Shown: positions 805 to 15,382 of the stretch, one piece after another
How the letters are laid out: every line of letters starts with the position of its first letter
Numbering within the stretch: position 1 is the first letter of the stretch
Virus record (IMG/VR): IMGVR_UViG_3300035698_030063
Direction: 5' to 3' (one strand)
DNA from: an uncultured virus (IMG/VR IMGVR_UViG_3300035698_030063)
Taxonomy: Duplodnaviria > Heunggongvirae > Uroviricota > Caudoviricetes
Length of the DNA stretch: 64,000 bases
Translations under genes and position numbers: made by a program
The notes under the pieces: model-generated
What the model saw: only the letters and a program-made list of their open reading frames with translations
The model's database searches: none
What the model was told of the DNA's origin: nothing

Positions 805-999
805 ATGAATTTAAATAGATTGAAAGAGTTAGAGCAAGAAGTTGTATCTTTAAAGAATAGTGGAGATGATCCTAGTTGGCAATTATCTACCTTGATATTT
901 GATAGAGGTTCTGATGTGTTGCCTTTTATAAAAAAACATTGTTCAGAGTCTTATGTCGAGATTTTAGAAGGGTATATTAGAGGTTATCATGACACATGA
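805..999 (+). CDS. Hypothetical protein (64 aa)
   Basis: ORF in tightly packed + strand cluster. Confidence 0.55.
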   Translation: MNLNRLKELEQEVVSLKNSGDDPSWQLSTLIFDRGSDVLPFIKKHCSESYVEILEGYIRGYHDT

Positions 1000-1014
1000 T
1001 CTAGGAGAGAAGAG

Positions 1015-1359
1015 TTGATAGAAGGCATGTATGAAGTAGGAGAGAAAGTCAGACTAAAAACATGGTCTCGATTAGTAGAAGATTTTGGTTTGGATAATAA
1101 TAGAAACATAATAATAAGATCGGGATATAGATATAATATTGAATCTGAGAAAGATATTACATCTAAAACTGTTGATAGGATTGTGGCTATTTCGTCCACT
1201 TCTCCTATTTTTTATGATAGGCATTTTGAATGGTATTATGTGGTGAATGAAGATAGAAAAAATAGATGGTGGTTGCTTGCTGAATTGATTGATGGGCTAG
1301 TTGAGGATTATAAACGACCATACCCTATCAACGATCGTTTTGAGATTTTAGATTTATGA
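1015..1359 (+). CDS. Small SH3/KOW-like protein with C-terminal PINDRFEILDL tag
   Basis: AGGAG SD before TTG; YEVGEKVRLK N-terminus; ends RFEILDL-stop. Confidence 0.7.
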   Translation: MIEGMYEVGEKVRLKTWSRLVEDFGLDNNRNIIIRSGYRYNIESEKDITSKTVDRIVAISSTSPIFYDRHFEWYYVVNEDRKNRWWLLAELIDGLVEDYKRPYPINDRFEILDL

Positions 1360-1598
1360 AGTATGGAATAGGTCAACAAGTAAAGATGAAGAAAACTTAT
1401 CCTGATTTTGGTTATAATGCTTTTTTCGCGAAATATGATTACGTATTTACTATAAAGAGTTATGACGGTTTTTATTATTCAGTAGAAGAAGATTTTATTT
1501 TGTATAGAGATGATTCTATAGAAGGTTTATATGTAGAAGGTTTATATGTAGAAGAAACAGACCCTATTTACGATCGTTTTGAGATTTTAGATTTATAA
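1356..1598 (+). CDS. Small SH3/KOW-like protein with C-terminal PIYDRFEILDL tag (probable paralog of 1015-1359)
   Basis: ATGA overlap; YGIGQQVKMK N-terminus; IEGLYVE vs IDGLVE; ends RFEILDL-stop. Confidence 0.7.
   Translation: MKYGIGQQVKMKKTYPDFGYNAFFAKYDYVFTIKSYDGFYYSVEEDFILYRDDSIEGLYVEGLYVEETDPIYDRFEILDL
1521..1554 (+). repeat. 15-bp in-frame tandem duplication (EGLYV x2)
   Basis: GAAGGTTTATATGTA GAAGGTTTATATGTA GAAG. Confidence 0.8.
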
Positions 1599-1612
1599 TT
1601 TTGGAATAAAAA

Positions 1613-1876
1613 ATGTATGATGAAACATTTGCTAAGCAATTATCTGAGTTAAGTGATTTTGCTCTAACTATAAGTGGGACTAAAAATGACTATAGTAAAG
1701 AAGATATGTTTAATGCTTCTTTAGTATTTTTTGAAGTTTTTACATCTCTCATGCATGATCATCATAAGGATAAATTAACTCAGGAGCAGTTAGAGATTCT
1801 TTCTGAAGAGGCTGGTAAGAGTATTCATCAAACTGTTGAGATTTTTACTGGGATTGATTTGAAAGGTATATATTGA
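1613..1876 (+). CDS. Hypothetical protein (87 aa)
   Basis: ORF, tight packing. Confidence 0.6.
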   Translation: MYDETFAKQLSELSDFALTISGTKNDYSKEDMFNASLVFFEVFTSLMHDHHKDKLTQEQLEILSEEAGKSIHQTVEIFTGIDLKGIY

Positions 1877-2163
1877 TGAAGTTAATTAAGTGGTTTAAAA
1901 AAAAGTTCAAGACAGTTTACTGTAATGAATGTAAATATAGAGGAGAAGAAAGTTGGTATAGACAACATGATTGTCACGCTTCTCCATATGTTTTTTTTGA
2001 AACAAAAGGATCATTATTAAAACGTCCAGAGACAACACGATATGAGGGATATCGTTTTTGTGAGAAAGTGAAAAAATTTCCTTGGTGTTCTAAATATAAG
2101 CAGCTAACTGAAGAAGATATACAAGCGAGAAAAGAAGCAAAAGAAATAAAGCGTAAAAAATAA
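1873..2163 (+). CDS. Hypothetical Cys-containing basic protein
   Basis: CNECKY..C..C..C pattern; TGATG overlap (ATG at 1876 likely start). Confidence 0.55.
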   Translation: MMKLIKWFKKKFKTVYCNECKYRGEESWYRQHDCHASPYVFFETKGSLLKRPETTRYEGYRFCEKVKKFPWCSKYKQLTEEDIQARKEAKEIKRKK

Positions 2164-2268
2164 ATAAATACAGTCTTAGGAATTGCAATCCTCTTAAGAA
2201 GAAAATAAGAAGAGAAATTAACGAATTGGATTTTGAGATGAAGTTTCCATTTTATAGAAAGGGTAGTT

Positions 2269-2361
2269 ATGAAGTTCGAAGAAAAGAGTAAAAAGTTGAG
2301 AGATGCTTATAAGAAGAAAGTTAAAAGAAATAAAAAGAAGATGAAAGAAGGAGAAAAATAA
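2269..2361 (+). CDS. Very small Lys-rich ORF (30 aa, not in ORF track)
   Basis: MKFEEKSKKLRDAYKKKVKRNKKKMKEGEK; AAGGG SD; TAATG coupling to next gene. Confidence 0.35.
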   Translation: MKFEEKSKKLRDAYKKKVKRNKKKMKEGEK

Positions 2362-2795
2362 TGCAGAAGATAGTTGTGAATAAGTGTTATGGCGGCTTTG
2401 GGCTTTCTATGAAAGCTCAAGAAGAGTATTTGAAATTGATAGGTAAAAAAGCATATTTCTATGTTATGTCTAAATATAAACATCGAGATGGAGTTGAAGA
2501 ACATAAGAAGATAGAAGTTGGGTCTGAAGGAGGCTTTTTTTCTAACACTTTAACAAAGGACTTTGGAGAAACTTTTGAAAAGTTCGGAGACGAACATAAT
2601 GATAATTTTTTCTTATCTATGGATATAGAGAGAGATGATCCTAAGTTGATTGAAGTTATAGAGAAGTTGGGAGACGAAGCTAACGGAGGTTGTGCCCAAC
2701 TTGCAATCGTAGAAATTCCTGATGGTGTTAAATGGGTCATAGATGATTATGATGGAATGGAAAGTGTAGAAGAAGAACATAGAAGTTGGTATTAA
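2361..2795 (+). CDS. Conserved phage hypothetical protein
   Basis: KIVVNKCYGGFGLS...RDDPKLIEVIEKLG...IVEIPD..W.IDDYDGMESVEE.HRSW pattern recognised from phage hypotheticals. Confidence 0.75.
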   Translation: MQKIVVNKCYGGFGLSMKAQEEYLKLIGKKAYFYVMSKYKHRDGVEEHKKIEVGSEGGFFSNTLTKDFGETFEKFGDEHNDNFFLSMDIERDDPKLIEVIEKLGDEANGGCAQLAIVEIPDGVKWVIDDYDGMESVEEEHRSWY

Positions 2796-2810
2796 TAAAG
2801 GATATTAAAA

Positions 2811-3164
2811 ATGGGTATTAAACGTTGTAAGATATGTGATGAGTTTATTTATGATTTTGAAGTAAAGGCAGGTAAGAAGCATAAATGTTTACCTTTGTGG
2901 TTATGTAGAATAAGTGATGGAGATGATGATAAATATACTGAAGAGGAGAAGGCAGAATGGTTTGAGTATAAATCTCATGCTTATAGTGCGTCAACTGCTG
3001 CTGAGCAATGTGCAGAAGAGCAAGAACCTAATTGGGACTATTCTTTTATTAATAATGGAGGGGTAGATATCGATGTTAAGGATCCTAAGACAGGAGAGGT
3101 AGAGAAGTTTTTTGTAAGCGCAGAGCAGGTTATTGAATACCATACTAGTAAAAGGAAAGAATAG
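2811..3164 (+). CDS. Hypothetical protein with N-terminal CxxC...HxC
   Basis: AAGGA SD; CKIC...HKC. Confidence 0.65.
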   Translation: MGIKRCKICDEFIYDFEVKAGKKHKCLPLWLCRISDGDDDKYTEEEKAEWFEYKSHAYSASTAAEQCAEEQEPNWDYSFINNGGVDIDVKDPKTGEVEKFFVSAEQVIEYHTSKRKE

Positions 3165-3178
3165 AGGATTTTTTAATG

Positions 3179-3206
3179 TTGAAAAGTGAAAATAAAGTGA
3201 TACAAT
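3179..3206 (+). promoter_or_regulatory. Possible sigma70-type promoter with extended -10
   Basis: TTGAAA-N16-TACAAT with TG upstream of the -10, in the intergenic gap before the macrodomain gene. Confidence 0.45.
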
Positions 3207-3233
3207 AGTAAATTATTATCATAGCAAGGTGAA

Positions 3234-3827
3234 ATGATGTCAGAATTTGAAGAAATTAGTGAAGATTTAGAAGTAAGTCTTACAAATAGGGAAATTAACG
3301 AAAAGACTCCATATGTGGATATAGAGCTTACTATGGGAGATATTACACAGATTGAAGTAGATGCTGTTGTTAATGCGGCACATGACGATCTTACAGGAGG
3401 AGGGGGAGTTGATGGGGCTATTCATAAGGCGGCAGGTCAGAAGCTCTTGGGAGAATGTCTTAATTTGTATGGATGTCCTCAAGGAGAAGCTAGAATTACA
3501 GGTGCTTATGATATGCCTTCTAAATATGTTATTCACACTGTTGGTCCTGTTTGGGTTCCTTCTTTACCTCCTGATATAAAATTTAGGATGTTAAGAGATT
3601 GTTATAACAGTTGTTTATTATTAGCTGAGAGTCAGGGATTAAAATCAATAGCATTTCCTTGCATTTCCACAGGTGCTTATTGTTTTCCAAAAGATTTAGC
3701 ATCTACGTGTGCTTTTGAAACGATTAAAACGTTTTTTAATGATCGTAAGGGTACGTATATAGATGAAGTTTACATTGTTTGTTTTGATAAGCAGAATTTT
3801 AAAGAATATGAAAAAATATTAACTTAG
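3234..3827 (+). CDS. Macrodomain protein (YmdB/MacroD-like ADP-ribose hydrolase)
   Basis: GDIT..VDAVVNAAH..L.GGGGVDGAIH.AAG, VIHTVGPVW and SIAFPCISTGAYCFP motifs. Confidence 0.92.
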   Translation: MMSEFEEISEDLEVSLTNREINEKTPYVDIELTMGDITQIEVDAVVNAAHDDLTGGGGVDGAIHKAAGQKLLGECLNLYGCPQGEARITGAYDMPSKYVIHTVGPVWVPSLPPDIKFRMLRDCYNSCLLLAESQGLKSIAFPCISTGAYCFPKDLASTCAFETIKTFFNDRKGTYIDEVYIVCFDKQNFKEYEKILT

Positions 3828-3840
3828 AAGGTGGTAATGT

Positions 3841-4059
3841 ATGAGATTAAGTAAAGCATCGAAGACACCAAGGAATTTGCCTTGTACCTGTGGTAGTGGA
3901 AAGAAATATAAAAAGTGCTGTTTGGTGAAACAGCAGGAGCAAGAAGCTATACAGTTCAAAGCTATGAGATTGGCGGCAGAGGCTAAAGAAGTAGAAAAAG
4001 AGAATATTGATAGATGCACTAACTCAGACCAAAATAAAGTTGTTGAAAAAGATGCTTGA
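3841..4059 (+). CDS. SEC-C motif (Zn-binding) protein
   Basis: RNLPCTCGSGKKYKKCC. Confidence 0.85.
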   Translation: MRLSKASKTPRNLPCTCGSGKKYKKCCLVKQQEQEAIQFKAMRLAAEAKEVEKENIDRCTNSDQNKVVEKDA

Positions 4060-4183
4060 ACAAAATGGCATAAATGATATGTTTGATTTTCAAGTTGACG
4101 AAAATACTGGTAAATTGGTTATAACTAAGAAGCAGAAAACAGATAAATTTATAGATAGTAGATTTGACATTTTGGATTTATGA
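4007..4183 (+). CDS. Small protein with C-terminal FIDSRFDILDL tag (58 aa from TTG 4007 or 43 aa from ATG 4052; not in ORF track)
   Basis: ...MLEQNGINDMFDFQVDENTGKLVITKKQKTDKFIDSRFDILDL-TGA (4181-4183); fills the gap between neighbours. Confidence 0.7.
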   Translation: MIDALTQTKIKLLKKMLEQNGINDMFDFQVDENTGKLVITKKQKTDKFIDSRFDILDL

Positions 4184-4184
4184 T

Positions 4185-4706
4185 ATGGTAGAAGAAGTAA
4201 AATTTGGTGATAAGATAATGGGCAAACCTAAAAAGAATCAAAGGGGTTTTATTCTTTACCCTCCTAAGCCTGAAGAAAAGATTAAGGTTCGTTTTGTTGG
4301 TAAGCAACAAAAGATATATCAACAGTGGAATAGTGCTACAAAAACGTTTACTTGTTCTGAAAGAAAGCAAGAAGGATATATTACTAGGGTGGTTTCTTTT
4401 GTAATAGATAGAGCGGATGAGAAAATCAAGGCTTTTTTATGTCCAGCTTCTGCATATCAGCAATTGGGAAATTTAGGTGAGCCTGATCATGATTTTGTTG
4501 TCCATAGACATGGCAGGGGTTTGAATACTAAATATGATGTAATAAGTTTAGGAAAGACTGAGGTTAGTCAAGATCTTTTGGATAGAATAGAGATTACTGC
4601 AAATACTTATTCTCTTTCAGATATTTTTATAAGAGACGTTAAATGGGAGCTTTTGGATAAAGATTATGAACCTATTGAAAATAGATTTGATATTTTAGAT
4701 TTGTAA
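4185..4706 (+). CDS. gp32-like single-stranded DNA-binding protein-like, with C-terminal PIENRFDILDL tag
   Basis: KVRFVG..W...RVVSFVIDRADEKIK...YQQL...DHDFVVHRHGRGLNTKYDV resembles phage gp32-like OB-fold SSBs; ATG 4185 preferred over TTG 4164. Confidence 0.55.
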   Translation: MVEEVKFGDKIMGKPKKNQRGFILYPPKPEEKIKVRFVGKQQKIYQQWNSATKTFTCSERKQEGYITRVVSFVIDRADEKIKAFLCPASAYQQLGNLGEPDHDFVVHRHGRGLNTKYDVISLGKTEVSQDLLDRIEITANTYSLSDIFIRDVKWELLDKDYEPIENRFDILDL

Positions 4707-4780
4707 AAGATTTTTTAGAGGATTTTTAAAATTTTCCTGTAATAAATAAATAGATATTAAATATTTTCAGGAGAATTATT

Positions 4781-5167
4781 TTGGCCAAGAAAGAATCATC
4801 AATCTTAAAAAAAGCAGGAATAATTATTTCTATTATTGTGGGTATTGTTGTTATAGTCCCATCTATTATTGGTGTTGATAAATATTTTGCTAAAACAACT
4901 GATGTTGAAAAAGTTGTGGTTGAATTAAAGAATACTGATCAATCTCTTAACCAGAGAATAGAAATAGGCATTATAGACGATCAGATATTTCAACAGGAGC
5001 AGACAATTCAAAGAATAGAAGATTGGCAGAGGTACGCTCAACGTAAAGAACAGCCAATATTAACACCTATTGAGAAAGAAATTTTGCAAAAAGCTAGAAT
5101 GAGAAAAGCTCAATTAGAGGGCAAAAAAGAAGATAAGATTAAAGCATATGAGAAAGGGAATAAGTAA
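4781..5167 (+). CDS. Single-pass membrane protein with coiled coil
   Basis: Hydrophobic IIISIIVGIVVIVPSII then Q/E/K-rich helix; AGGAG SD before TTG. Confidence 0.65.
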   Translation: MAKKESSILKKAGIIISIIVGIVVIVPSIIGVDKYFAKTTDVEKVVVELKNTDQSLNQRIEIGIIDDQIFQQEQTIQRIEDWQRYAQRKEQPILTPIEKEILQKARMRKAQLEGKKEDKIKAYEKGNK

Positions 5168-5589
5168 TGAAAATTATAAAAAGCAGTTTATATATGAGAA
5201 AAGAAGCTATTTGGTCTAAAATGCCTGTAGGGGATCCTAATCTACCTGGACAGCTTACTGAGCAGGATATAACAGGTGGGATGGAAGATGATACTGCTTA
5301 TGGTCAGCGAGGGGAATCACATCTTGATAATGCCATTTTATATTATACATATGATTATGATTATAATGAGAACATGGCTACTAATATAAAGCCAATATTA
5401 TCTGTAGATAATAGATATGGAAGTCATATTTCAGATACTAGTGAGTTAGGAATGTTAGTGGAAAGTAATGAAGATCAGATAAGAAATGATATAGAGCATT
5501 TTGAAGAAGATGCTAAAATTGAAAGACAGCCAGGATATGGTCAACCAGAATATGATCCTGTTGATCAGTATGACGATATTGGTTTTTGA
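5167..5589 (+). CDS. Acidic hypothetical protein (possible head protein)
   Basis: TAATG coupling; basic leader MKIIKSSLYMRKEA, acidic body, ends YDDIGF. Confidence 0.6.
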   Translation: MKIIKSSLYMRKEAIWSKMPVGDPNLPGQLTEQDITGGMEDDTAYGQRGESHLDNAILYYTYDYDYNENMATNIKPILSVDNRYGSHISDTSELGMLVESNEDQIRNDIEHFEEDAKIERQPGYGQPEYDPVDQYDDIGF

Positions 5590-5596
5590 GAAAAAT

Positions 5597-5630
5597 AGCC
5601 ACTCTATCTTATAAGTAGAGTGGTTTTTTT
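5597..5630 (+). terminator. Rho-independent terminator
   Basis: AGCCACTCTAT...GTAGAGTGGTT stem plus T run; same AGCCACT/AGTGGTTTT design as 219-251. Confidence 0.8.
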
Positions 5631-5712
5631 ATGTCCTTAGATATCGGTTGTGTGTCAAAAATATAAAAAAATGACGATATAATATTAGTTATTAAATTTT
5701 TTGGAGAAAAAT

Positions 5713-6105
5713 ATGAATGGTTTGACACCAGAAGAAAAACAGACGGCATTTACATATGCTGCGAATGGCGCTGATTTTATGTTTATGCCAAGTCCTGAAT
5801 TACGTTCTAAAATCGCTCTGGGTTGCCCAGAAGCTGATGGAATTAACAATGTGATGACAGCCATCCTTATACAGGGAAAGCCCACCAGATTGGAATCTAA
5901 GATGGTTGTCAGGTATTGTAAGGGTACGTTAGACAAAAATAATACTTGGCTGTTCGATAATGGCAATATAAAGGTGGTTCCTAAACGATTTAAACAACCA
6001 GAAAAGCTAAAATCAGAAGAAGATAAAAGGATAGACAGGGAGATAAAAGAAAAAGGAAAAGCATCTGTTATGATAAAAAAAGAGGAGAATAGCAATGAAG
6101 AATGA
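5713..6105 (+). CDS. Hypothetical protein
   Basis: GGAG SD before ATG 5713 (track start TTG 5701). Confidence 0.6.
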   Translation: MNGLTPEEKQTAFTYAANGADFMFMPSPELRSKIALGCPEADGINNVMTAILIQGKPTRLESKMVVRYCKGTLDKNNTWLFDNGNIKVVPKRFKQPEKLKSEEDKRIDREIKEKGKASVMIKKEENSNEE

Positions 6106-6379
6106 AAGTAATAATAAGGGAACTATGGATAAGACATCTAAGAAAACAACTGTTAAAAAGAATAGCAAGGGTAAAGCCGTTTCAATTACTCAGTTTAAAG
6201 ATTTAGAGGGAAAATTTCTACATGTTAAAGTCGGGCATGAGATGCGTCCTGCTAGCGTAGAGGATATAGAATCAATTCAAGAACAATTGGTTAATTTATT
6301 TGAGAAGAATAATGTTAACTGTTTAGCATTTGTTACCCATCATGCTGTTGAGATGGACATCATAGAAAAGGATAATTAA
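6095..6379 (+). CDS. Hypothetical protein
   Basis: GAGGAG SD; overlapping operon arrangement. Confidence 0.65.
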   Translation: MKNESNNKGTMDKTSKKTTVKKNSKGKAVSITQFKDLEGKFLHVKVGHEMRPASVEDIESIQEQLVNLFEKNNVNCLAFVTHHAVEMDIIEKDN

Positions 6380-6801
6380 TGGAGTGTAAAATGTTAAAAA
6401 AGCCTGTTTTTGAGAATTTTACGGAATATTGGTATTATGCCAGATACTTATCGAGGGAACAGAGAAAACTTATATTTAAAAGTCTTTCTTCTAAACAAAG
6501 AAAGTTCTTAGATAATTCTTATTTAAGCGAGGGATGGTGTGATTTATTTTATCGTAATGAGGTTGATGTAAAAATAGATGAACTGAAAGAATTTTATGGT
6601 TACGATGTTCTAGAGATACGTTTAAAAGTTTTAAAAGGAAAAAGTGTGTATGTCCCCGCTAAATTTTGGAAAATAGCAGAAGAGCAGTTTAATCAGTATG
6701 TTCCAGAAGCAGTTAATTTTGTTATAGGAGGTTTGAGAGCTATTCCTGATAAGGAGAACAAACAAGTTTGTCTGATTGTTTATGACCCATCAGATGATTG
6801 A
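6379..6801 (+). CDS. Hypothetical protein
   Basis: TAATG coupling; 140 aa. Confidence 0.65.
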   Translation: MECKMLKKPVFENFTEYWYYARYLSREQRKLIFKSLSSKQRKFLDNSYLSEGWCDLFYRNEVDVKIDELKEFYGYDVLEIRLKVLKGKSVYVPAKFWKIAEEQFNQYVPEAVNFVIGGLRAIPDKENKQVCLIVYDPSDD

Positions 6802-6839
6802 AATTTTACAATTTTATATTTTTAATTACTGGGAGTCCT

Positions 6840-7682
6840 ATGTCTAGAAAAAAATGTAATGGGAATGGAAATGGTAATGACAGTAGTGTTGAGAAAAATA
6901 GTAAAATAAAAAGTGAAGTAAAGAAGAAATACATAAAGCCGAGAATATCAGTAACGGCAAAAAGTGAAAATCAAAGATTGCTTTTAAAATCAATCAAAGA
7001 AAACTTAGTCACAATTGTAGCAGGCCCTCCAGGAACTGGGAAAGCTCAACCTTTAGATTCAAAAGTCTATACTCCTAATGGGGTTAAGCTAATGAAGGAT
7101 ATAAATATTGGAGATGAAGTTTCCACTCCTGACGGAGGAGTTTCGAAGGTTATAGATGTTTTTCCTCAAGGTGAAAAGGATGTTTATCGTATATTTTTTA
7201 TGGATGGAGATTATGTCGAGTGCTGCAAGGATCATTTATGGAGAATTAAAGACAAATATAAATACAAGGAAAAATATAAAAACAAATATAGAGTAGAAGA
7301 TAGTTAATAGGAAGATAAAAGAGACTAATCATATTGGTAAAAAAAGTGTCAATGTATAAGTGTGAATGATGATAAGAAGTTATATCTAACAGATAATTTT
7401 ATTGTCACTCATAACACATTTAGAAATTCTTTTATCATTCTTGATGAAGCTCAAAATACTAGCCCAGAACAAGTTAGAATGTTTCTAACAAGGATAGGGG
7501 AGAATTGTAAGGTTGTTATTACAGGGGATCCTTTTCAAACCGATATTAGAGGTAAAAACGGGCTAGTAGATGCTTGTGAAAGATTGGAGGGAGTAAATAA
7601 TCTTAGTATTATTGAATTCACCAAAGAGGATATTGTAAGAAATCCTATTGTTGCGGAAATTGAAGAAAGATATTCTGAGTAA
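6840..7682 (+). pseudogene. phoH: PhoH-like ATPase, intein-interrupted, frameshifted and internally deleted
   Basis: KSENQ..L...GPPGTGK (Walker A) | intein | TFRNSFIILDEAQN...FLTRIGENCKVVITGDPFQTD...DIVRNPIV. In-frame stops at 7305-7310, 7326 and 7338; the usual segment between Walker A and RGR-T is absent. Confidence 0.85.
7044..7415 (+). mobile_element. Degenerate Ala-start mini-intein (HINT domain, no endonuclease)
   Basis: AQPLDSKVYTPNG...CCKDHLW (blocks A/B); CQCISV...LYLTDNFIVTHN|T (blocks F/G); KIVNRKIKETNHIGKK lies in a shifted frame. Confidence 0.85.
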
Positions 7683-7685
7683 AAT

Positions 7686-7727
7686 AAAGGTTTTGAAGTA
7701 AGAAAAAGCGAATATTTGTATTATATA
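7686..7727 (+). promoter_or_regulatory. Putative phage-specific (late) promoter motif
   Basis: AAAGG-N19-GAATATTTGTATTATATA; same layout recurs in other intergenic gaps. Confidence 0.45.
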
Positions 7728-7753
7728 GGGACGATTGTACTCTTGGAGAGATA

Positions 7754-10700
7754 ATGTTTAATTTAGATAGATTAATTGAGATGGTTAAAAAGGGGGAATT
7801 CCCAAACAAACCTTTTAATATTAGAAAAAAAGCAGGGGAAGAAGAATTCGGTGAGGAGTATATAAGAAGAACTACAGATGCTCCTAAAGCGGAACAATCT
7901 TATGAAGAAAGTTTTGAAAGAGTTCCTCAAGTTAAAGAGGATATTAGTTTTGATTTATCAAATAGGCTTACTGAAGAGCAGAAGTTGAATGCACAAAAAA
8001 TAGATGAAGCTATGAATTTATGGGTTCAGCAGAATACTCAAAGCATGGGAATGGAGGCCACAGAGGGAGTTGAGGCTTTAGAGCACAAACGGGATAAGAG
8101 ATCTGAAGATTCATTACTAAAAACAGATAAATTTATAGTAGATGAAATGAGAAAAGATCCAAATCTTATCACAACTTTAACTAATAAGATTGATCAAAAT
8201 GTGCCACTTGAGCCAGAAATGCCACTTATATTTGTGGCAACTATGTTGGCTAAACATCAGAAAAAAGAAGAGGTAACAGAGAAAGCTCCTGCTGATTTTG
8301 TTGAACCTGTTCGTCCTGTTTCTCCTACTGATGCTGCTCCTGTTGCTGATGCTAATGTTGGTAGTGATGTAATGTATGATGATATTACATTATCGGTTAT
8401 GAGGAGATTTAATCCTGATTCTTTAGAAGAAACTGGTGATTTGGATAATGTTTTAGACGCCCTTAGCCCTAAAGGAAAAGGCGTTGGCAAGATGTATAAT
8501 CCTACTAATTTCCAAGTAGCTGTTGAGAAGATGTTTGGCGTACCTAAGGGTAATAATGTTGATCAGAGGATGAATTTTTTCTTAGTTAATTCTGATTTAT
8601 TGGCTATGCCATTTTTCCCAAATGAAAATCCACAGTACAATATTTTTCAACAAGTTCCAGGGCTAGAAGAGGGATTAAGGGCAGAGTTGAATAAATTTGG
8701 AATCGGGGATGAGGATATCATATCTGGTTTAAAAAGAGCTAGTGCTCAAAAAGCTGATCAAGCAAGAGGCATTCCAAGTCCTAAAGGCCCGATAACCAGA
8801 GCTTTACAATTATATGCAGAACCTGAATTGCATGAAATTTTGCAGCAATTGATCGGAAGAACAGATCCTTCAATAGTTCAATGGTTTAAACCTAAATTGC
8901 AGTATGCAATGGAGGAAACAGGGGCAAAACTTAATGTAAATGAAGAGACTAGTAACCTCGGTATAGGTCCAGGGGAAGAGATGGCAATAAAAGAAAAAGC
9001 AACACCTGAACAGAAAAGTCATGCAGCTAATCAGGTCGCGGCAATTGTTGATAGTTATTTAGTTGATCAGTTGGACACTATGGATATAATGAAGGATTCT
9101 ATAGTTGGAAACATGATGGCTCCTGAAGTAAATAAGTATATGGAGTTAAAGAATGGTCTTGCTACTGTTCGAAGTCCAGAAGAAAAAACACAAGTAGAAA
9201 ATAATATTAAAAATCAGATGGGCATGTATATTCTTACTGAGTCTTTAAATGGATTTAGTAATTATACTATAGTCCAATTAAGACAACTTTTTAAAGATGC
9301 TACTGGGGTTTCTGCTGGGAAGAAATATTATGCTCCAGGATCTGAACAAAAAGATACTATGATTAATTTTACGAATGATTTTGGAAAAGCAAACGTTCCA
9401 TCAGATATTATAGAAACTATTTTTAAGGGGGATAAGAGTGGAAGCGAAAAAATTAATCCTAGCGATTATGTTAAGGGATATATAAATCAAATTAATAGTG
9501 GAGAAATAACTGATCCATATTCCCCAGATTGGTCAAAAATGATTCAGAGAAAAGTTCCATATAATGTTTTTGCTGATATGTATATGTTAAAATCTGAAAT
9601 AAAAGGTATGCACGACAGAGGATTAGCAAGAAGACCAGAAGGTGCTTACTCTGGAGAAGATGTTATTACATCTATATATAACGATTTAGAGAAAGATGTA
9701 GCAAGCAGAAAGATGTTGGAAGATTTTTCTGGAATAGTCTATGAGGATAGAAATAGTTCTCTACAAATAGAACAAAAAAAGAAAAATTTTATTAGAATGA
9801 CCTTGGATCAAACAAATAAAAATTTAAATAGATATGAAAGTTGTTATAAGGCAAGAAAAAAATATAATGATTTAAGGGAAGAAGTCAAGAATAAGCATAT
9901 GCTGACTGATGAGGAGAGAAAAGAAGAAATATCAGCCATCAATAGAGAAGAGAAAGAGGGAAAGGTATATTTTAAGGATGATAAAGATGGAAATATTATA
10001 GTAGATAAAAAAGGCCTTCCTAAAAAATTCCATGATTATTCTGTTCTAAAAAATGTAAAATGGGTTATTGGTTCTATTATGTGGCCATTACTACCAAGCA
10101 TATTGAATAATATTGAAAACTCTCAAGCTACGAATATTTTTGAAATGAATGCAGAAAAATCATTTTTAGATTTATTTGACCACGGCGCTAAACAATATGA
10201 AAGATATACTGATATCGGTAAGAATATTAATCCTTTTGATGAGCAAGGCAGATCTAATACTGAATTGTATTATCTAGTTAGAGATGGCAGAATTCCAGTA
10301 GATATTCAAAAAATAATAGATTTTACCAAAAAATCTAAAATGACAGAAAATGACAAGATATATATTAATAATCTTAATTATATTTTTGGATTAAAAAAGA
10401 AGTTAAGGAAAAATCAAGATCTTTTAGATAAGGCTACTATTAACAAAGAAAATTATATAGTTAATCGTTTGAGTTATATGGCTCGAGATAGAGTTAATAA
10501 GATCAGGTTTGAAAAAAATCCAAATGAACAAGCTAAACTTTTATCTAGGATCCCTCCAGAAAAACTTCAAGAATTTAAAAATAAAGTTATTAGCGAATGG
10601 GACGGTTATTCTGGATTGTCTGATGAATATTATCTATGGTTAGGGCTTAAAGGTCCTGTTAAAAGTAAAAATACTTTTAATAGTCTTGTGAATAAATATC

Positions 10701-10966
10701 AAAATTCTGTTGATAAAGTTTTAAATGATATAACAGTTAAAGAAGTGGCGAATGCTAAGGTAAAGCGGCTAACTACTGCTTCTAAAACATCGTATTTAAG
10801 ATTGGTTCATGCCGAATATAAAAAAGCTTTATCAAAAATAGATAAATTACATAAAATTAAAAAGTTTTCATATAAATTTGCGAGTGTAGATGTTTCTTCA
10901 ATTGACGATACTATATTAGATATTGAGAAAAATTTTGAGAGTCTTTTAGACACTTTAATAAGGTAG
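7754..10966 (+). CDS. Large hypothetical protein (1070 aa), possibly internal virion protein
   Basis: GGAG SD; no recognisable catalytic motif; acidic N half, basic C half; downstream of putative late promoter. Confidence 0.6.
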   Translation: MFNLDRLIEMVKKGEFPNKPFNIRKKAGEEEFGEEYIRRTTDAPKAEQSYEESFERVPQVKEDISFDLSNRLTEEQKLNAQKIDEAMNLWVQQNTQSMGMEATEGVEALEHKRDKRSEDSLLKTDKFIVDEMRKDPNLITTLTNKIDQNVPLEPEMPLIFVATMLAKHQKKEEVTEKAPADFVEPVRPVSPTDAAPVADANVGSDVMYDDITLSVMRRFNPDSLEETGDLDNVLDALSPKGKGVGKMYNPTNFQVAVEKMFGVPKGNNVDQRMNFFLVNSDLLAMPFFPNENPQYNIFQQVPGLEEGLRAELNKFGIGDEDIISGLKRASAQKADQARGIPSPKGPITRALQLYAEPELHEILQQLIGRTDPSIVQWFKPKLQYAMEETGAKLNVNEETSNLGIGPGEEMAIKEKATPEQKSHAANQVAAIVDSYLVDQLDTMDIMKDSIVGNMMAPEVNKYMELKNGLATVRSPEEKTQVENNIKNQMGMYILTESLNGFSNYTIVQLRQLFKDATGVSAGKKYYAPGSEQKDTMINFTNDFGKANVPSDIIETIFKGDKSGSEKINPSDYVKGYINQINSGEITDPYSPDWSKMIQRKVPYNVFADMYMLKSEIKGMHDRGLARRPEGAYSGEDVITSIYNDLEKDVASRKMLEDFSGIVYEDRNSSLQIEQKKKNFIRMTLDQTNKNLNRYESCYKARKKYNDLREEVKNKHMLTDEERKEEISAINREEKEGKVYFKDDKDGNIIVDKKGLPKKFHDYSVLKNVKWVIGSIMWPLLPSILNNIENSQATNIFEMNAEKSFLDLFDHGAKQYERYTDIGKNINPFDEQGRSNTELYYLVRDGRIPVDIQKIIDFTKKSKMTENDKIYINNLNYIFGLKKKLRKNQDLLDKATINKENYIVNRLSYMARDRVNKIRFEKNPNEQAKLLSRIPPEKLQEFKNKVISEWDGYSGLSDEYYLWLGLKGPVKSKNTFNSLVNKYQNSVDKVLNDITVKEVANAKVKRLTTASKTSYLRLVHAEYKKALSKIDKLHKIKKFSYKFASVDVSSIDDTILDIEKNFESLLDTLIR

Positions 10967-10972
10967 AATTGT

Positions 10973-11062
10973 ATAAATATAACAATAGTATGTTTTCAAT
11001 GCAGGAATCATGATAAGTATCCTAATATGGAAATAAATTTTAGAGATAACAAGATATATTAT
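10973..11062 (+). repeat. Degenerate 90-bp copy of the 5' end of ORF 11664-11834 (start ATG mutated to ATA)
   Basis: 79/90 nt identical to 11664-11753 by manual alignment. Confidence 0.85.
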
Positions 11063-11106
11063 TACGATAAATATGTGTGATTATTTATTATTCAAAAGGA
11101 AAATAG

Positions 11107-11667
11107 ATGGAGATTAATAGAGTTTGGAATATGCCTAACAAATGGACTTTTAAAATAAAGCCTATTAGAGAGTTATTAAAAAAATATGTAAATCAAGAAA
11201 AAATATGGTTAGATCCTTTTGCAGGAGAAAACAGCCCTGGAACTATTACTAATGATTTAAATCCACAAAGGGATACTGATTATCATATGGATGCAAGAGA
11301 TTTCTTACATATGTTTGATAATGAATATGCAGATGGTATTCTTTATGATCCACCATATTCTGTTACGCAAGTGAAACAGATATATGATGGTATTGGTAAA
11401 GAGGTTACATTTAAAGAAACAAGAGCAAGTTTCTGGAGAGAAGCTAAAGATGAAATAACAAGAGTTATTAAGGATGATGGAATAGTTATTAGCTTTGGAT
11501 GGAATTCTAGTGGAGTTGGTAAAACTAATGGTTTTGAAATTATAGAAGTTTTAATGGTTCCTCATGGTGGAATTCACAACGATACAATAGTCGTGGTAGA
11601 AAAAAAAGTTTCAAAATCTATTTGTGATGATGTGGATTTGTTTGAAGACGAGATGAGTAGTATATGA
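11107..11667 (+). CDS. Adenine (amino) DNA methyltransferase, solitary phage type
   Basis: LDPFAG (motif I), DPPYS (motif IV), MPNKWTFKIKPI N-terminus, HGG.HNDTI C-terminus. Confidence 0.85.
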   Translation: MEINRVWNMPNKWTFKIKPIRELLKKYVNQEKIWLDPFAGENSPGTITNDLNPQRDTDYHMDARDFLHMFDNEYADGILYDPPYSVTQVKQIYDGIGKEVTFKETRASFWREAKDEITRVIKDDGIVISFGWNSSGVGKTNGFEIIEVLMVPHGGIHNDTIVVVEKKVSKSICDDVDLFEDEMSSI

Positions 11668-11834
11668 ATATAACAGTAGTATGTTCTCATTGTAGAAATC
11701 ATGATAAAGATCCTAATATAGAAATAAATTTTAGAGATAATAAGATATATTACTTTTGTCCTGAATGTGAAAAAGAAAGTATCATTAGTCTAAAAGCTGT
11801 TTTGCCCCCACTTCCAAAAACAAGAAGGATGTAA
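11664..11834 (+). CDS. Small Zn-ribbon protein (56 aa, not in ORF track)
   Basis: MNITVVCSHCRNHDKDPNIEINFRDNKIYYFCPECEKES...; ATGA overlap with MTase stop. Confidence 0.7.
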   Translation: MNITVVCSHCRNHDKDPNIEINFRDNKIYYFCPECEKESIISLKAVLPPLPKTRRM

Positions 11835-11835
11835 T

Positions 11836-12408
11836 ATGTTTTTTATAGTTAATAAAACAAAAAGCACTGTTTCAATAGTTGATATTAATATCACCTTAGG
11901 CCCCAGGCAGGCTGTAGATTTAGATAAATTAATGAGCAGGAGTAAGTCAGAAGCTTCCAAGATGCTAAAGAGGGCTAGTAAAAAAGGACATATTGATGTT
12001 CGTATTAAAGATGGTGGTAAAATATCTAAAATAAAATCTTCAGAAAAAATAAACGATCTTAATGATTTTAAAAAAGAAATTTTGGAAGAAATGAAAGGAT
12101 TGTTAAATCAGACTCAGCAACCAACCCCACAGCAAAGCTTAGGTAAAGAAGATCTAGCAGCTTTTGCTCAACAGATTATAAGTAGTATACCTAAGTCAGA
12201 AACTATTATTATACAAGGTCAACCTCAAGAAGTTAGAGAAGATGAGGATGTTGAAATGGATGAAGATATGTTGGCAAAGATTAATGCAAGAACTGTCGAT
12301 AAGATAGTAGAAGGCACTGATATTAATGCTATGAATTATAAAGAAGAAAAGCAAGAAAATACGATATTAGATAATATAAATGAACTAGAAGATTTGCTTT
12401 TTGACTAA
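11836..12408 (+). CDS. Hypothetical protein with acidic C-terminus (candidate partner of the actin-like protein)
   Basis: AAGGA SD; 190 aa; partner role inferred only from position. Confidence 0.6.
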   Translation: MFFIVNKTKSTVSIVDINITLGPRQAVDLDKLMSRSKSEASKMLKRASKKGHIDVRIKDGGKISKIKSSEKINDLNDFKKEILEEMKGLLNQTQQPTPQQSLGKEDLAAFAQQIISSIPKSETIIIQGQPQEVREDEDVEMDEDMLAKINARTVDKIVEGTDINAMNYKEEKQENTILDNINELEDLLFD

Positions 12409-12439
12409 TAAAAATAAAAGAAGGATATTTAGCAGATAG

Positions 12440-12712
12440 AAGAAAAATCCAGAATATAAGCAATGGACAAAAGATGTATATAAAAAAGATGGTTATACTT
12501 GTCAAAAATGTTTTAAGGCGGGACGTAAATTGAATGCTCATCATATAGAAGGTTTTGCTGAAAATAAAAAAATAAGAACAGATATTAATAATGGTATAAC
12601 TTTTTGTCAAGATTGTCACAATTTATTTCATGCTATTTACAGTAAGAAAAATATAACTAAAAAACAATTAGATGATTTTATGATTAAAAAAAGTATGAAG
12701 AGGACTGGCTGA
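12440..12712 (+). pseudogene. HNH endonuclease remnant (N-terminus lost)
   Basis: KNPEYKQWTKDVYKKDGYTCQKC...KLNAHHIEGF...DINNGITFCQDCHNLFH; in-frame TAG at 12437 and no upstream start; homologous to C-terminus of 14300-15382. Confidence 0.8.
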
Positions 12713-12713
12713 T

Positions 12714-12932
12714 ATGGCTTTTAATAGAGAAAATTTTACAGATGAAGAAAAAGAAGCTATAATATCCCATGCTTTAGAGATTGACGAAGGAAGAATTGTT
12801 TTAGCTCAAGCTTTTGCTAATACTATTCCTAGTTATATTGAAACGGGAAGAAAACTTCTTAAGATGGACGAAATTATGAAAGAGGAAATACCTGATCCTA
12901 TTGACAGTAGATTTGATATTCTAGATTTGTAG
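12714..12932 (+). CDS. Small protein resembling a major capsid protein N-terminal fragment, with C-terminal PIDSRFDILDL tag
   Basis: TDEEKEAIISHALEIDEGRIVLAQAFAN.I....GRKLLKMDE recalls N-termini of large-phage HK97-fold capsid proteins; ends RFDILDL-stop. Confidence 0.55.
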   Translation: MAFNRENFTDEEKEAIISHALEIDEGRIVLAQAFANTIPSYIETGRKLLKMDEIMKEEIPDPIDSRFDILDL

Positions 12933-12940
12933 GATATATC

Positions 12941-13177
12941 ATGAGATGTAAATCGCATAAGAGATATAAGGGCGAGTTGAGACCACGATGTAGCTGTTTA
13001 GATTGTTGGATAATATATATAGAGTCGCATTTGGATTTAGGAATTATAGACGATGCTATTGAGCATCAAAAAGAATTTCACGGAGGATGGAGTATTGAGT
13101 ATGGAGACACAGACGATAATTTGGTAACAAATTATTTATTTAAAAAGAAAAGAGAATTGGAGTTAAGATATGAGTAG
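12941..13177 (+). CDS. Hypothetical protein with N-terminal C/H Zn motif
   Basis: CKSHKRYKG..RPRCSCLDCW; AGGA SD. Confidence 0.6.
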   Translation: MRCKSHKRYKGELRPRCSCLDCWIIYIESHLDLGIIDDAIEHQKEFHGGWSIEYGDTDDNLVTNYLFKKKRELELRYE

Positions 13178-14225
13178 AGCATGTGGAGTTGATGTCGGGA
13201 CGATGTTTTTTCAGGTTGCTGAAAATGATAAAGATGGAAAAATAGATCTTAAAGAGATTAGAAATGCTTTTGTACAACTGGAAGCTTCTGAAGATATTGA
13301 GCAAGTTCTTGCTCAAAATGACTGGCAATATGTTAGTGACGATAAGAACTATTACGTGCTGGGAGAGGATTCCATGAGAGTGGCTAGGATGTTCCCAGGC
13401 AAAGTAGAACTGAGGAGACCTATGCAGGGAGGAGTTCTTAATAAGGGAGAAGATAAGAAGATGCTTGTGATGGCTAAAATGATCGAATCTTCTATCGGTA
13501 AAGCTCCTGATAATAATTCTTTAGTTTGTACTTGTATATCTTCTGATCCTGTAGATGGAGCGCAAGATAATTTATTTCATAAGGTTAGATTAGAGGGTAT
13601 GTTCAAACGTCTTGGATGGAATATTAAGGTTATCGAGGAAGGTCATGCTGTTATTCTATCTGAGAATCCATCTATAACTGATTCAGATGGTAAAAGAATT
13701 CCTTTTAGTGGAATAGGCGTATCTTTTGGTGCTGGTAAGGTTAATTGTGTTCTTGCATATAGAGGTCTCTCAGTTGTCGGTATGAGTGCTGCTAGATCTG
13801 GAGATTGGATAGACAGTAAAGTTGCTGAACAAACTGATGTCCCTATTACTAAGGTAACTAATGTAAAAGAGACTAAGTTAGATTTTAACAATATAGATTA
13901 TGATGATGATATTGTTTTTGCTTTAGATGCTTATTACACTAATATGATTGAGTATGTATTTAAGAATTTTGCTAAGAAATTTTCTAAAGAGAAGAGCGAG
14001 TTTGAAGCTCCTTTAGATATTGTGATAGCAGGTGGAACTTCTATACCTAAAGGATTTAGAGATAAAGTGAAATCTGTTGTAGAAGGATTAGATCTTCCTT
14101 TTGAGATTAAGGATGTGATCCATTCAGAAGATCCGAGAAATGCTGTGGTTAAGGGTTTGTTAACTCAGGCTATTATTTCTCAAAAAAAGCTTAAGGGCAG
14201 GAAAATAAATGAAATGCTAGATTAA
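13170..14225 (+). CDS. Actin-fold ATPase, volactin-like (MreB/MamK superfamily)
   Basis: Phosphate-1 GVDVGTM; RNAF; RRPMQGGVL; EEGHAVILSE; phosphate-2 GIGVSFGAGKVN; RSGDWID; adenosine loop IVIAGGTS.PKGF; DPRNAVVKG. Confidence 0.85.
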   Translation: MSRACGVDVGTMFFQVAENDKDGKIDLKEIRNAFVQLEASEDIEQVLAQNDWQYVSDDKNYYVLGEDSMRVARMFPGKVELRRPMQGGVLNKGEDKKMLVMAKMIESSIGKAPDNNSLVCTCISSDPVDGAQDNLFHKVRLEGMFKRLGWNIKVIEEGHAVILSENPSITDSDGKRIPFSGIGVSFGAGKVNCVLAYRGLSVVGMSAARSGDWIDSKVAEQTDVPITKVTNVKETKLDFNNIDYDDDIVFALDAYYTNMIEYVFKNFAKKFSKEKSEFEAPLDIVIAGGTSIPKGFRDKVKSVVEGLDLPFEIKDVIHSEDPRNAVVKGLLTQAIISQKKLKGRKINEMLD

Positions 14226-14299: not shown

Positions 14300-15382
14300 A
14301 TGTCAAAAAAATTAAAACATAGTTATATAAAGCAATATTTTAAAGATAATAATTGTGAATTATTAGAAAAAGAATATATAAATAATTTAACTAAAATGAA
14401 ATATAGATGTAGTTGTGGGGATATTAGCGAAATAACTTTCAATAGTTTTAAAAGGGGATCACGATGTTTTACTTGTGGTAAGGAAAAAATGGCAGAAAAA
14501 CAGAGATTAACATATGACTATGTTAAAGATATGTTTAGATTTTCAGGATGCGAGTTATTAGAAAAAGAATATAAAAATTGTATGGTTTTAATGAAGTATA
14601 GGTGTAGCTGTGGGAATATGAGTAAAATAACTTTTAATCAATTTCAACAAGGGCAAAGATGTGCAAAATGTGGAGGAACAGAAAAACTTACAATAGAATA
14701 TGTGAAAGGATTTTTTGAAGAGCAGGGTTGTGAGCTGTTAGAAAAAGAATATGTTAATAACAGAACAAAAATGAGATATATGTGTAAATGTGGTAATTAT
14801 TCAAAAATTGGATTTGATAGTTTCAAAATGGGACGAAGATGCATGAAGTGTAGAGGATCGGAAAAATTAATATATGAATATGTTGAACAATATTTTAAGG
14901 AACAAGGTTGCGAGCTGATAGAGAAAGAATATGTTAATAATAGAACAAAAATGAGATACAAGTGCGATTGTGGAAGTATAAGTGAAATATGTTTTAGTGA
15001 TTTTAAACAAGGGAGGAGATGTAAAAAATGTGGATATGAGAAAATATCTGGTGAAAATCATTGGAATTATGATAGTAGTTTAACAGATGAAGATAGGCAA
15101 GATAGAAGGCTTATAGATGGATATCTTCAGTGGATAAAAAGCATTTATAAAAATAATAATTATACTTGCCAGAAATGCATTAAAAGAGGTGGCAAATTGA
15201 ATGCTCATCATATCGAAAATTATTCTGCTAATAAAGGGTTGAGGGTAGATATGAATAATGGAATATGTTTTTGTGAGTCATGCCATAAACAATTTCATAA
15301 AAAATATGGTAAAAGAAATAATAATAAACAACAGTTAGATCAATTTATAGGAGATAAAAATGGGATATTGTGTAGAGTCTGA
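14300..15382 (+). CDS. HNH homing endonuclease with four N-terminal Zn-ribbon repeats
   Basis: Four copies of KLTxEYV..F...GCELLEKEY.N..TKM.Y.CxCG....I.F..F..G.RC..C; C-terminal YTCQKC...KLNAHHI...NNGICFCESCHKQFH. Confidence 0.88.
   Translation: MSKKLKHSYIKQYFKDNNCELLEKEYINNLTKMKYRCSCGDISEITFNSFKRGSRCFTCGKEKMAEKQRLTYDYVKDMFRFSGCELLEKEYKNCMVLMKYRCSCGNMSKITFNQFQQGQRCAKCGGTEKLTIEYVKGFFEEQGCELLEKEYVNNRTKMRYMCKCGNYSKIGFDSFKMGRRCMKCRGSEKLIYEYVEQYFKEQGCELIEKEYVNNRTKMRYKCDCGSISEICFSDFKQGRRCKKCGYEKISGENHWNYDSSLTDEDRQDRRLIDGYLQWIKSIYKNNNYTCQKCIKRGGKLNAHHIENYSANKGLRVDMNNGICFCESCHKQFHKKYGKRNNNKQQLDQFIGDKNGILCRV

Follow-up and report, generated by a model that had tools for sequence, protein, structure and literature searches.

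Several described systems use short peptides at one end of a protein as an address. The HbYX tails of PAN, Cdc48, Mpa and non-ATPase activators dock on the 20S proteasome, and the T4 phage proteins gp43, gp33 and gp55 share C-terminal tails that bind the sliding clamp (compare the bacterial QL[SD]LF motifs). Encapsulin cargo-loading peptides, which are also C-terminal, bind HK97-fold shells and have a consensus other than the one described below, and the capsid-targeting sequence of the T4 internal proteins is N-terminal and cleaved off by the prohead protease. For HslU, the octapeptide EDLSRFIL activates HslV (PMC4106860). The subject here is a C-terminal peptide, henceforth the tag, found in a 64,000-nt stretch of DNA (record IMGVR_UViG_3300035698_030063; 'the window' in what follows, always meaning the whole stretch) from a huge phage that is a relative of Bacillus phage G and has not been cultured. 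Five open reading frames (ORFs) of the window, all on the + strand, end in (P/F)I-x-x-RF[DE]ILDL with a stop codon immediately after, at exactly the positions reported in a first-pass annotation made from the letters of the window:

1015..1359, + strand: small tagged protein of the SH3-like family, 114 residues from TTG 1015; tag PINDRFEILDL at 1324-1359, stop TGA
1356..1598, + strand: small tagged protein of 80 residues, paralogue of ORF 1015-1359; tag PIYDRFEILDL at 1563-1598, stop TAA
4007..4183, + strand: tagged 58-residue protein, fold unknown; tag FIDSRFDILDL at 4148-4183, stop TGA
4185..4706, + strand: gp32-like protein with an OB fold, of the type that binds single-stranded DNA, 173 residues; tag PIENRFDILDL at 4671-4706, stop TAA
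12714..12932, + strand: 72-residue protein, a copy of a capsid N-terminus followed by a linker and the tag; tag PIDSRFDILDL at 12897-12932, stop TAG

The pattern F[DE][ILVM]L[DE][LIVMF] has exactly five matches in the six frames of the window, all on the + strand and all directly before a stop. The back-translated DNA pattern MGNTTYGANATHYTNGAYYTNTRR likewise matches five times, whereas 100 shuffles of the sequence that preserved its dinucleotides gave no match at all (mean 0.00, maximum 0). G+C is about 31-36% (4-kb bins), and the + strand carries nearly all genes. The tag sits on four or more unrelated bodies in the window, and the five tagged proteins match no family above threshold in either Pfam or PHROG. 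No large tail or virion ORF of the window bears a terminal tag, in agreement with the first-pass annotation.

It is the peptide, not the DNA, that is conserved. Within the window the tag is written with different codons (Arg as CGT or AGA; Leu as TTA, TTG or CTA; Asp as GAT or GAC; Ile as ATT, ATC or ATA), and when the seven tag codons are compared across 65 strict tags drawn from four relatives as well as the window, pairwise identity is 0.949 at codon positions 1 and 2 and 0.555 at position 3. Arg is encoded by AGR in 44 of these and by CGN in 21, and all three stop codons are used (TGA 25, TAA 24, TAG 16). Since positions 1 and 2 are far more alike than position 3, and the Arg codons and the stops vary, conservation follows the amino acids, which bears out what had been concluded from synonymous variation in the window. 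The sequence [ED]-P-I-x-[SND]-R-F-[DE]-I-L-D-L-COOH is thus a portable short linear motif carried on a charged linker, and selection on the protein has kept it attached to more than 100 unrelated, mostly orphan bodies within one uncultured huge-phage clade.

The extent of the clade-wide tag was established from related IMG/VR records, labelled G001, G002, G003, G004 and so on. A search with the degenerate DNA pattern returned four IMG/VR contigs of 64,827 to 547,943 bp, two of which align with the window at 66-82% DNA identity over aligned blocks; strict-pattern counts in the four records were 16, 3, 20 and 17, and the reversed pattern, used as a control, gave 0. With a relaxed terminal expression, tagged ORFs number 5 in the window, 24 in G001, 3 in G002, 28 in G003 and 44 in G004. 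A broad C-terminal expression, run on non-overlapping gene sets and proteins of at least 60 residues, found 29 of 444, 35 of 463 and 37 of 742 genes to be tagged, where 0.14, 0.11 and 0.22 would be expected from the internal frequency of the motif. The enrichment at C-termini is therefore far above chance, both against shuffled controls (window) and against internal frequency (genes of the relatives). Tagged genes make up about 5-8% of these three gene sets, encode shorter proteins than the other genes do (median 95-121 as against 172-188 residues) and occur in tandem runs, with up to five consecutive in G004.

Together with a metagenome scan that contributed at least 137 stretches, these records yield at least 305 distinct ORFs with the tag. 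Their bodies form 129 clusters, of which 89 are singletons and nearly all are orphans; the modular character proposed for the tag holds well beyond the window. Of 162 tagged proteins scanned outside the window, only 3 scored above the Pfam cut-off (two DUF551 proteins and a DUF4116 repeat protein), and of the five inside it none did. Position -7 is Arg in 304 of the 305 ORFs, although the search expression did not demand it, position -10 is Ile in 236 and position -11 is Pro in 146, and Glu and Lys are more frequent in the 13 residues that precede the core of the tag than in the bodies. A search of 185,579 prokaryote species, each represented by one genome, gave two pattern matches, both in non-coding DNA of Microcoleus, so that the tag is not a common bacterial motif. 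No named family for the tag was found in the searches made, as had been suspected, and exact motif strings and keywords returned no description of it in the open-access literature searched.

The first-pass annotation had taken the tag to need a free C-terminus, and this holds in part. No internal copy of the strict motif is seen in any of the six frames, and most tags are terminal. In G004, however, the 44 ORFs with a terminal tag are accompanied by seven in which 1-12 residues follow the strict motif, and two sister lineages add one or two acidic residues. These sister records, G005 (219 kb, 44% complete) and G007 (461 kb, complete), have dialects of their own. At least 17 ORFs of G005 end in [RK]F[DE][LI]MD[LI] plus zero to two further acidic residues, and about 10 of G007 end in [FW][DE]xID[LIM][DE], without the Arg. 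Orthologues switch dialect between lineages: the C-termini of a 263-residue family read CDRFDILDL, CDRFDLLDL, TDRFDLMDLD and NTVFDVLDLE, those of a 120-residue family xRFDILDL, TRWDILDL, TRWDFLDIREE and GFFDYIDIEE, and three more families switch between G001/G003 and G005. Unrelated bodies thus change their tag in parallel, as would be predicted if a single, co-evolving protein read all of them.

A candidate for such a reader, here called AAA-2, is a 552-residue tandem AAA+ ATPase (phrog_8638) encoded in the replication module, where the helicase and its putative loader are its neighbours. Its sequence is similar to that of p97/Cdc48, its model can be aligned with D1 and D2 of p97, and its C-terminal tail, disordered in the monomer model with a predicted local distance difference test score (pLDDT) of 40-48, ends in [KR]-[DEQ]-[LI]-D-[LI], a short form of the tag motif. 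The element [LI]-D-[LIF] lies near the C-terminus in 24 of 25 full-length homologues, and within 0-2 residues of the end in 23 of the 25. The tail also varies along with the dialects: it reads ...DLDL in G001, G003 and G004 (tags ...ILDL), ...DLDI in G005 (tags ...LMD[LI]) and ...NIDIE in G007 (tags ...ID[LIM][DE]). In G038 the tail is absent (the protein ends ANTITN), and no enriched C-terminal motif was seen in 400 of 488 kb; phage G yielded no AAA-2 homologue and no tag.

The tails of HslU and of the HbYX proteins are among the closest of the described systems. As there, the peptide is short, hydrophobic and acidic, and lies mostly at a free C-terminus on a flexible tail; the AAA-2 tail, moreover, lies at the C-terminus of an ATPase of the hexameric, ring-forming AAA+ type, and several different proteins can share one docking motif. 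A local likeness (S-R-F-(E)-I-L in the tag, S-R-F-I-L in the HslU peptide of PMC4106860) comes with a different register, ILDL-COOH as against IL-COOH. The systems also differ in the number of carriers, for each genome has about 25-50 small tagged proteins that are not ATPases; docking by the tag would be a prediction from sequence. A partner peptidase ring (PF00227, PF00574), that is a phage ClpP or HslV/proteasome, was not found in any of five tag-bearing phage records.

What resembles encapsulin cargo peptides and T4 capsid targeting is that unrelated cargo proteins share a portable peptide at one end, that the virus has an HK97-fold shell, and that one client copies the capsid N-terminus. 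Here, however, clients include replication-type proteins and are known from genes, not from virions, and the tag is C-terminal in all 305 ORFs collected, unlike the T4 sequence. As with clamp-binding tails, unrelated phage proteins share a C-terminal hydrophobic-Asp-hydrophobic-Leu peptide, which in the clamp system docks on one hub, but the tagged clients are far more numerous and mostly orphans, and the tail of the phage polymerase differs: DnaE ends ...SVDMFEDLF, which we take to be a canonical-looking clamp motif. The clamp families PF00712 and PF02768 had no match at E<=1 in G001, G003 or G004, with positive controls, and a phage-encoded sliding clamp was set aside as reader. The acidic tip of SSB proteins (DDDIPF type) is different again, the PF00436 SSB of G004 ending ...TEEFDSI and the tag having a near-invariant Arg and a final Leu. 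An ssrA-type degron does not fit either, in that the tag is encoded in each gene and no tmRNA is among the 29 tRNA-type genes of G004. The L-D-L-COOH end does fit the pattern of PDZ class II ligands (hydrophobic-x-hydrophobic-COOH); no PDZ family was found in Pfam scans of G004, which among the untagged phage proteins covered those above a length of 90-170 residues (by conservation). For the clamp, SSB-tip, T4 capsid-targeting and ssrA families, the tag thus lacks the defining features that were tested, and it shares with HslU and HbYX only that of the AAA+ tail. New here are the lineage dialects, the parallel switching of orthologues, the client with a capsid N-terminus, the link to the phage G lineage and the resemblance to an AAA tail.

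The reading preferred here, held with moderate confidence, is that the tag serves as a docking or address label read by one co-evolving protein, for which the AAA-2 system would be the best lead. The tag would plug into one pocket of one reader protein, and co-evolution of the two would lead orthologues of different families to adopt the same dialect in each lineage. Two arrangements can be envisaged: (i) the tags and the AAA-2 tail may dock on a common partner, as the HslU tail does on HslV and the PAN and Cdc48 tails on the 20S proteasome, or (ii) AAA-2 itself may recognize the tags as marks of its clients. The fate of a client could be unfolding, turnover, or delivery to the replisome or the procapsid. 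If the tags and the AAA-2 tail share a pocket, unfoldase and clients would converge on one hub, for which an ATP-driven station for loading or remodelling proteins, at the procapsid or the replication factory, is proposed as an example. That the reader, and the fate of the clients, belong to an AAA-2-linked system is possible, though less likely than not. The fullest version, a private addressing code of the huge phages of the phage G lineage in which about 25-50 clients per genome use a pocket that also receives the AAA-2 tail, and in which dialects drift with the reader, would be unlikely.

Several observations weigh against this account. The correlation with AAA-2 rests on four lineages plus phage G, and it is imperfect, in that the homologue P0164 ends KDLDLD, yet the five tags in L119 (probably the same contig) are canonical. 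AAA-2 is also a much wider family than the tag, with 73 viral loci; among 53 viral records that carry it, an excess of tags is seen only in G001, G003, G004, G005 and G007, with one match each in G012 and G023 and none in the other 46. Small phages whose AAA tails end GRKLDL or GRALDLS have no tag expansion, only a neighbouring gene ending similarly, and where the AAA homologue of a record ends in an acidic run followed by Leu, C-termini of this kind are not in excess. The residues that follow the motif in G004, G005 and G007 may argue against an absolute need for the carboxylate on the last Leu. Given the width of the family and the imperfect correlation, AAA-2 may be just another client of some other hub. 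A complex prediction for AAA-2 (residues 1-530), the actin-like protein of the window and the 80-residue tagged protein gave an interaction prediction score from aligned errors (ipSAE) of 0.01 in two runs without controls, and weighs neither way.

Other candidates for the reader were considered and rejected. The actin-like filament, which the first-pass annotation had put forward as a possible hub, gained nothing. The protein in question (window 13170-14225; Pfam Volactin, E 2e-58) has orthologues of 62-85% identity in G003, G004, G007, G028 and G038 and of 28% in LR745208 and LR756511; the last two are tagless, and so are G038 and G028, whose copies are 62-63% identical. A Clp_N protein resembling the ClpC N-domain belongs to a family of 7,419 matches and has none in G005 or G007. 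The tagged OB-fold protein is absent from G004. Docking of the AAA-2 tail in cis was discarded on the low pLDDT of that tail in the monomer model. The gene beside AAA-2, u272, looks in an alignment like a loader of the DnaC type whose P-loop is degenerate, and it shares no homology with the neighbouring gene of the small phages. As a separate observation, many AAA-2 homologues are split into pieces of about 334 residues or carry intein domains (PF14890).

The Clp_N protein deserves a remark of its own. In G004 (207489-208208; L028:7492-8208) it is a stand-alone protein with a ClpC-type N-terminal domain, about 54% identical to proteins of Planctomycetota. An identical protein is labelled in one public source as belonging to a 'Candidatus Asgardarchaeia' bin, but the genes of the contig (sigma-70, IF3, DnaE and a capsid of the phage G type) are those of a phage that infects bacteria.

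Of the rival explanations, the one that survives best is a capsid-loading label, by which the tag would attach to the scaffold or to the inside of the HK97-fold shell, and dozens of small accessory proteins would thereby enter the procapsid and later be injected with the DNA. It is unlikely, although some features of the clients speak for it: these are small orphans in tandem arrays, typical of accessory or host-takeover genes, and one that is conserved in G001, G003 and G004 (window 12714-12932) copies the first 55 or so residues of the major capsid protein, while the precedent of the C-terminal encapsulin peptides is at hand. The SSB-like OB-fold protein, in contrast, speaks against it, as do the six tagged G004 genes that lie inside the replication module, between the pieces of DnaE, the primase and the helicase. 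Furthermore, G004 and G007 differ in dialect, yet their capsid proteins are 90% identical, and the tag was not found in G038 or in phage G, whose capsid proteins are 80% and 55% identical, respectively.

Less probable still is a timed degron, by which the tag would mark early proteins for an AAA+ protease (AAA-2 with a host peptidase, or the HslUV, ClpXP or ClpCP of the host). Terminal peptide degrons are the usual means by which such machines choose substrates (ssrA and ClpXP, for instance), two p97-like ATPases are conserved in G001, G003 and G004, and G004 also has an ATPase fused to an M41 peptidase; the likeness of S-R-F-E-I-L to the HslU tail points the same way. The fusion, however, has no BLAST match in G003 or G001, the Clp_N protein has no match in the two sister records and no peptidase ring was found in the five tag-bearing records, as noted above. 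Nor does the tag mimic a common host motif, going by the two non-coding matches among prokaryotes, and the destruction of a conserved SSB-like protein would be odd.

A replisome docking tail, comparable to the C-terminal tip of SSB, to T7 gp2.5 and gp4 or to the clamp-binding tails of T4, is improbable to a further degree. In its favour, the gp32-like protein is tagged, the replication module of G004 holds the six tagged genes just mentioned, AAA-2 is a neighbour of the helicase and putative loader, and T4 provides the precedent of unrelated proteins with a common clamp-binding tail. Yet most clients are encoded in arrays far from the replication genes, the phage DnaE and the true SSB (PF00436) end otherwise, and a beta-clamp domain was not detected by Pfam in G001, G003 or G004, the 368-residue neighbour looking helical in a low-confidence Atlas model. 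Finally, a DNA-level element (a recombination site, terminator or repeat) translated by accident can be dismissed almost entirely: the sites do always abut gene ends, where many genes overlap by 1-4 bases, but the identity of 56% at third positions as against 95% at the first two, the switches of Arg between the AGR and CGN families, the use of three stops, the lack of any match to the reversed pattern and a tag reading frame that is always that of the ORF all speak for the peptide.

The significance of a common label that docks clients on one reader, as preferred here, would depend on what that reader is. Most genes of huge phages are small orphans without a handle, and a shared tag supplies one: identifying its reader would at a stroke give 5-8% of the proteome a common fate. 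If the reader is the p97-like ATPase system, the tag would be a virus-encoded code for substrate selection by an AAA+ machine; if it is the capsid, a natural protein-packaging signal usable for cargo loading. The lineage dialects offer a built-in test of specificity, through swaps of tags between phages.

As regards the tagged proteins themselves, the body types proposed from the window are mostly upheld (an SH3-like family with weak structural neighbours, an OB/SSB-like protein and a capsid-like fragment). ORFs 1015-1359 and 1356-1598 are paralogues within the largest body family, which accounts for 57 of the 305 tagged ORFs, and the structural neighbours of the latter are weakly SH3-like or FeoA-like. 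The start that this family shares, MxY.VG, suggests the Met at 1027 as the start of ORF 1015-1359. ORF 4007-4183, which was missing from the ORF track, is probably a genuine gene, because it has protein-level homologues on contigs L101 and L110 at the same position, just upstream of the OB-fold gene.

For the OB-fold gene itself (4185-4706), ATG 4185 (MVEEVKFG) is the probable start rather than TTG 4164, in line with 26 homologues. It has 28 metagenomic homologues, and all 26 that were aligned end in PIxxRF[DE]I[LM]DL; a single-protein query with it found no related loci among viral contigs. Its AlphaFold model is an OB fold (pLDDT 89.5) with a disordered tail, for which the best PDB match is the gp32 core of RB69 (VIA-align Z 6.6, 126 aligned; Foldseek probability 0.90), followed by that of T4 (Z 5.6, 131 aligned; 0.89). 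These scores are middling, and the label 'SSB-like' is therefore plausible, not proven.

The first 55 or so residues of ORF 12714-12932 are 49% identical to the N-terminus of a 290-residue protein, which is 90% conserved among G002, G004 and G007 and matches the major capsid protein gp27 of phage G (PDB 6wkk_A) with E 1.3e-95. ORF 12714-12932, of which orthologues were found in G001, G003 and G004, is therefore a conserved mini-protein made of a capsid N-terminus plus the tag.

Around the tagged genes, a macro domain protein is encoded at window 3234-3827, and the part of the window from 900 to 4800 has near-identical DNA in 20 public salt lake metagenome runs, six of which contain at least half of the sampled words and none of which is recorded as RNA; the sample of origin may be among them.

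By its major capsid protein, the clade has Bacillus phage G as its closest cultured relative, at 54.8% identity. Pfam matches in G004 depict a bacterial-type huge phage with a split DnaE, DnaX, a DnaB-like helicase, a primase, RecA, several sigma-70-type proteins and IF3; portal and capsid are encoded close to one end. DnaE (405016-410391) is in two pieces with tagged genes between them. The same genome has an ADP-ribose/NAD toolkit (PARP catalytic domain plus WGR, ART-PolyVal, NADAR, NAPRTase and NAD synthase), as well as a Ro60/TROVE-vWA gene beside the second p97-like ATPase.

Other terminal motifs occur in these genomes. Distinct from the tag, C-termini of a second class, which are acidic and close with an aromatic residue, are seen at window 5167-5589 and in G004 at 405016-406998, 404529-404807 and 414898-416436 (...DQYDDIGF, ...SVDMFEDLF, ...EIDMFD and ...SQDIDDVF), and they recall SSB-tip or clamp motifs. 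Adjoining the largest tag array of G004 (126525-134708; L024) are about 12 paralogous genes of about 270 residues in tandem, seven of which end ...PFINE or ...RFINE, and seven proteins of G007 end ...LPE; these may be further terminal motifs.

Mobile elements are likewise part of the window. A PhoH-like ATPase gene (6798-7682) is interrupted, with the P-loop end in ORF 6798-7307 and the C-terminal part resuming in ORF 7362-7682 after a frame break; the insert resembles by eye an intein (Hint) domain, and PHROG matches there are to helicase-loader, primase and terminase families. Homing elements are present at 12530-12712 and 14300-15382, and the HNH, LAGLIDADG and GIY-YIG types are frequent in the window and its relatives.

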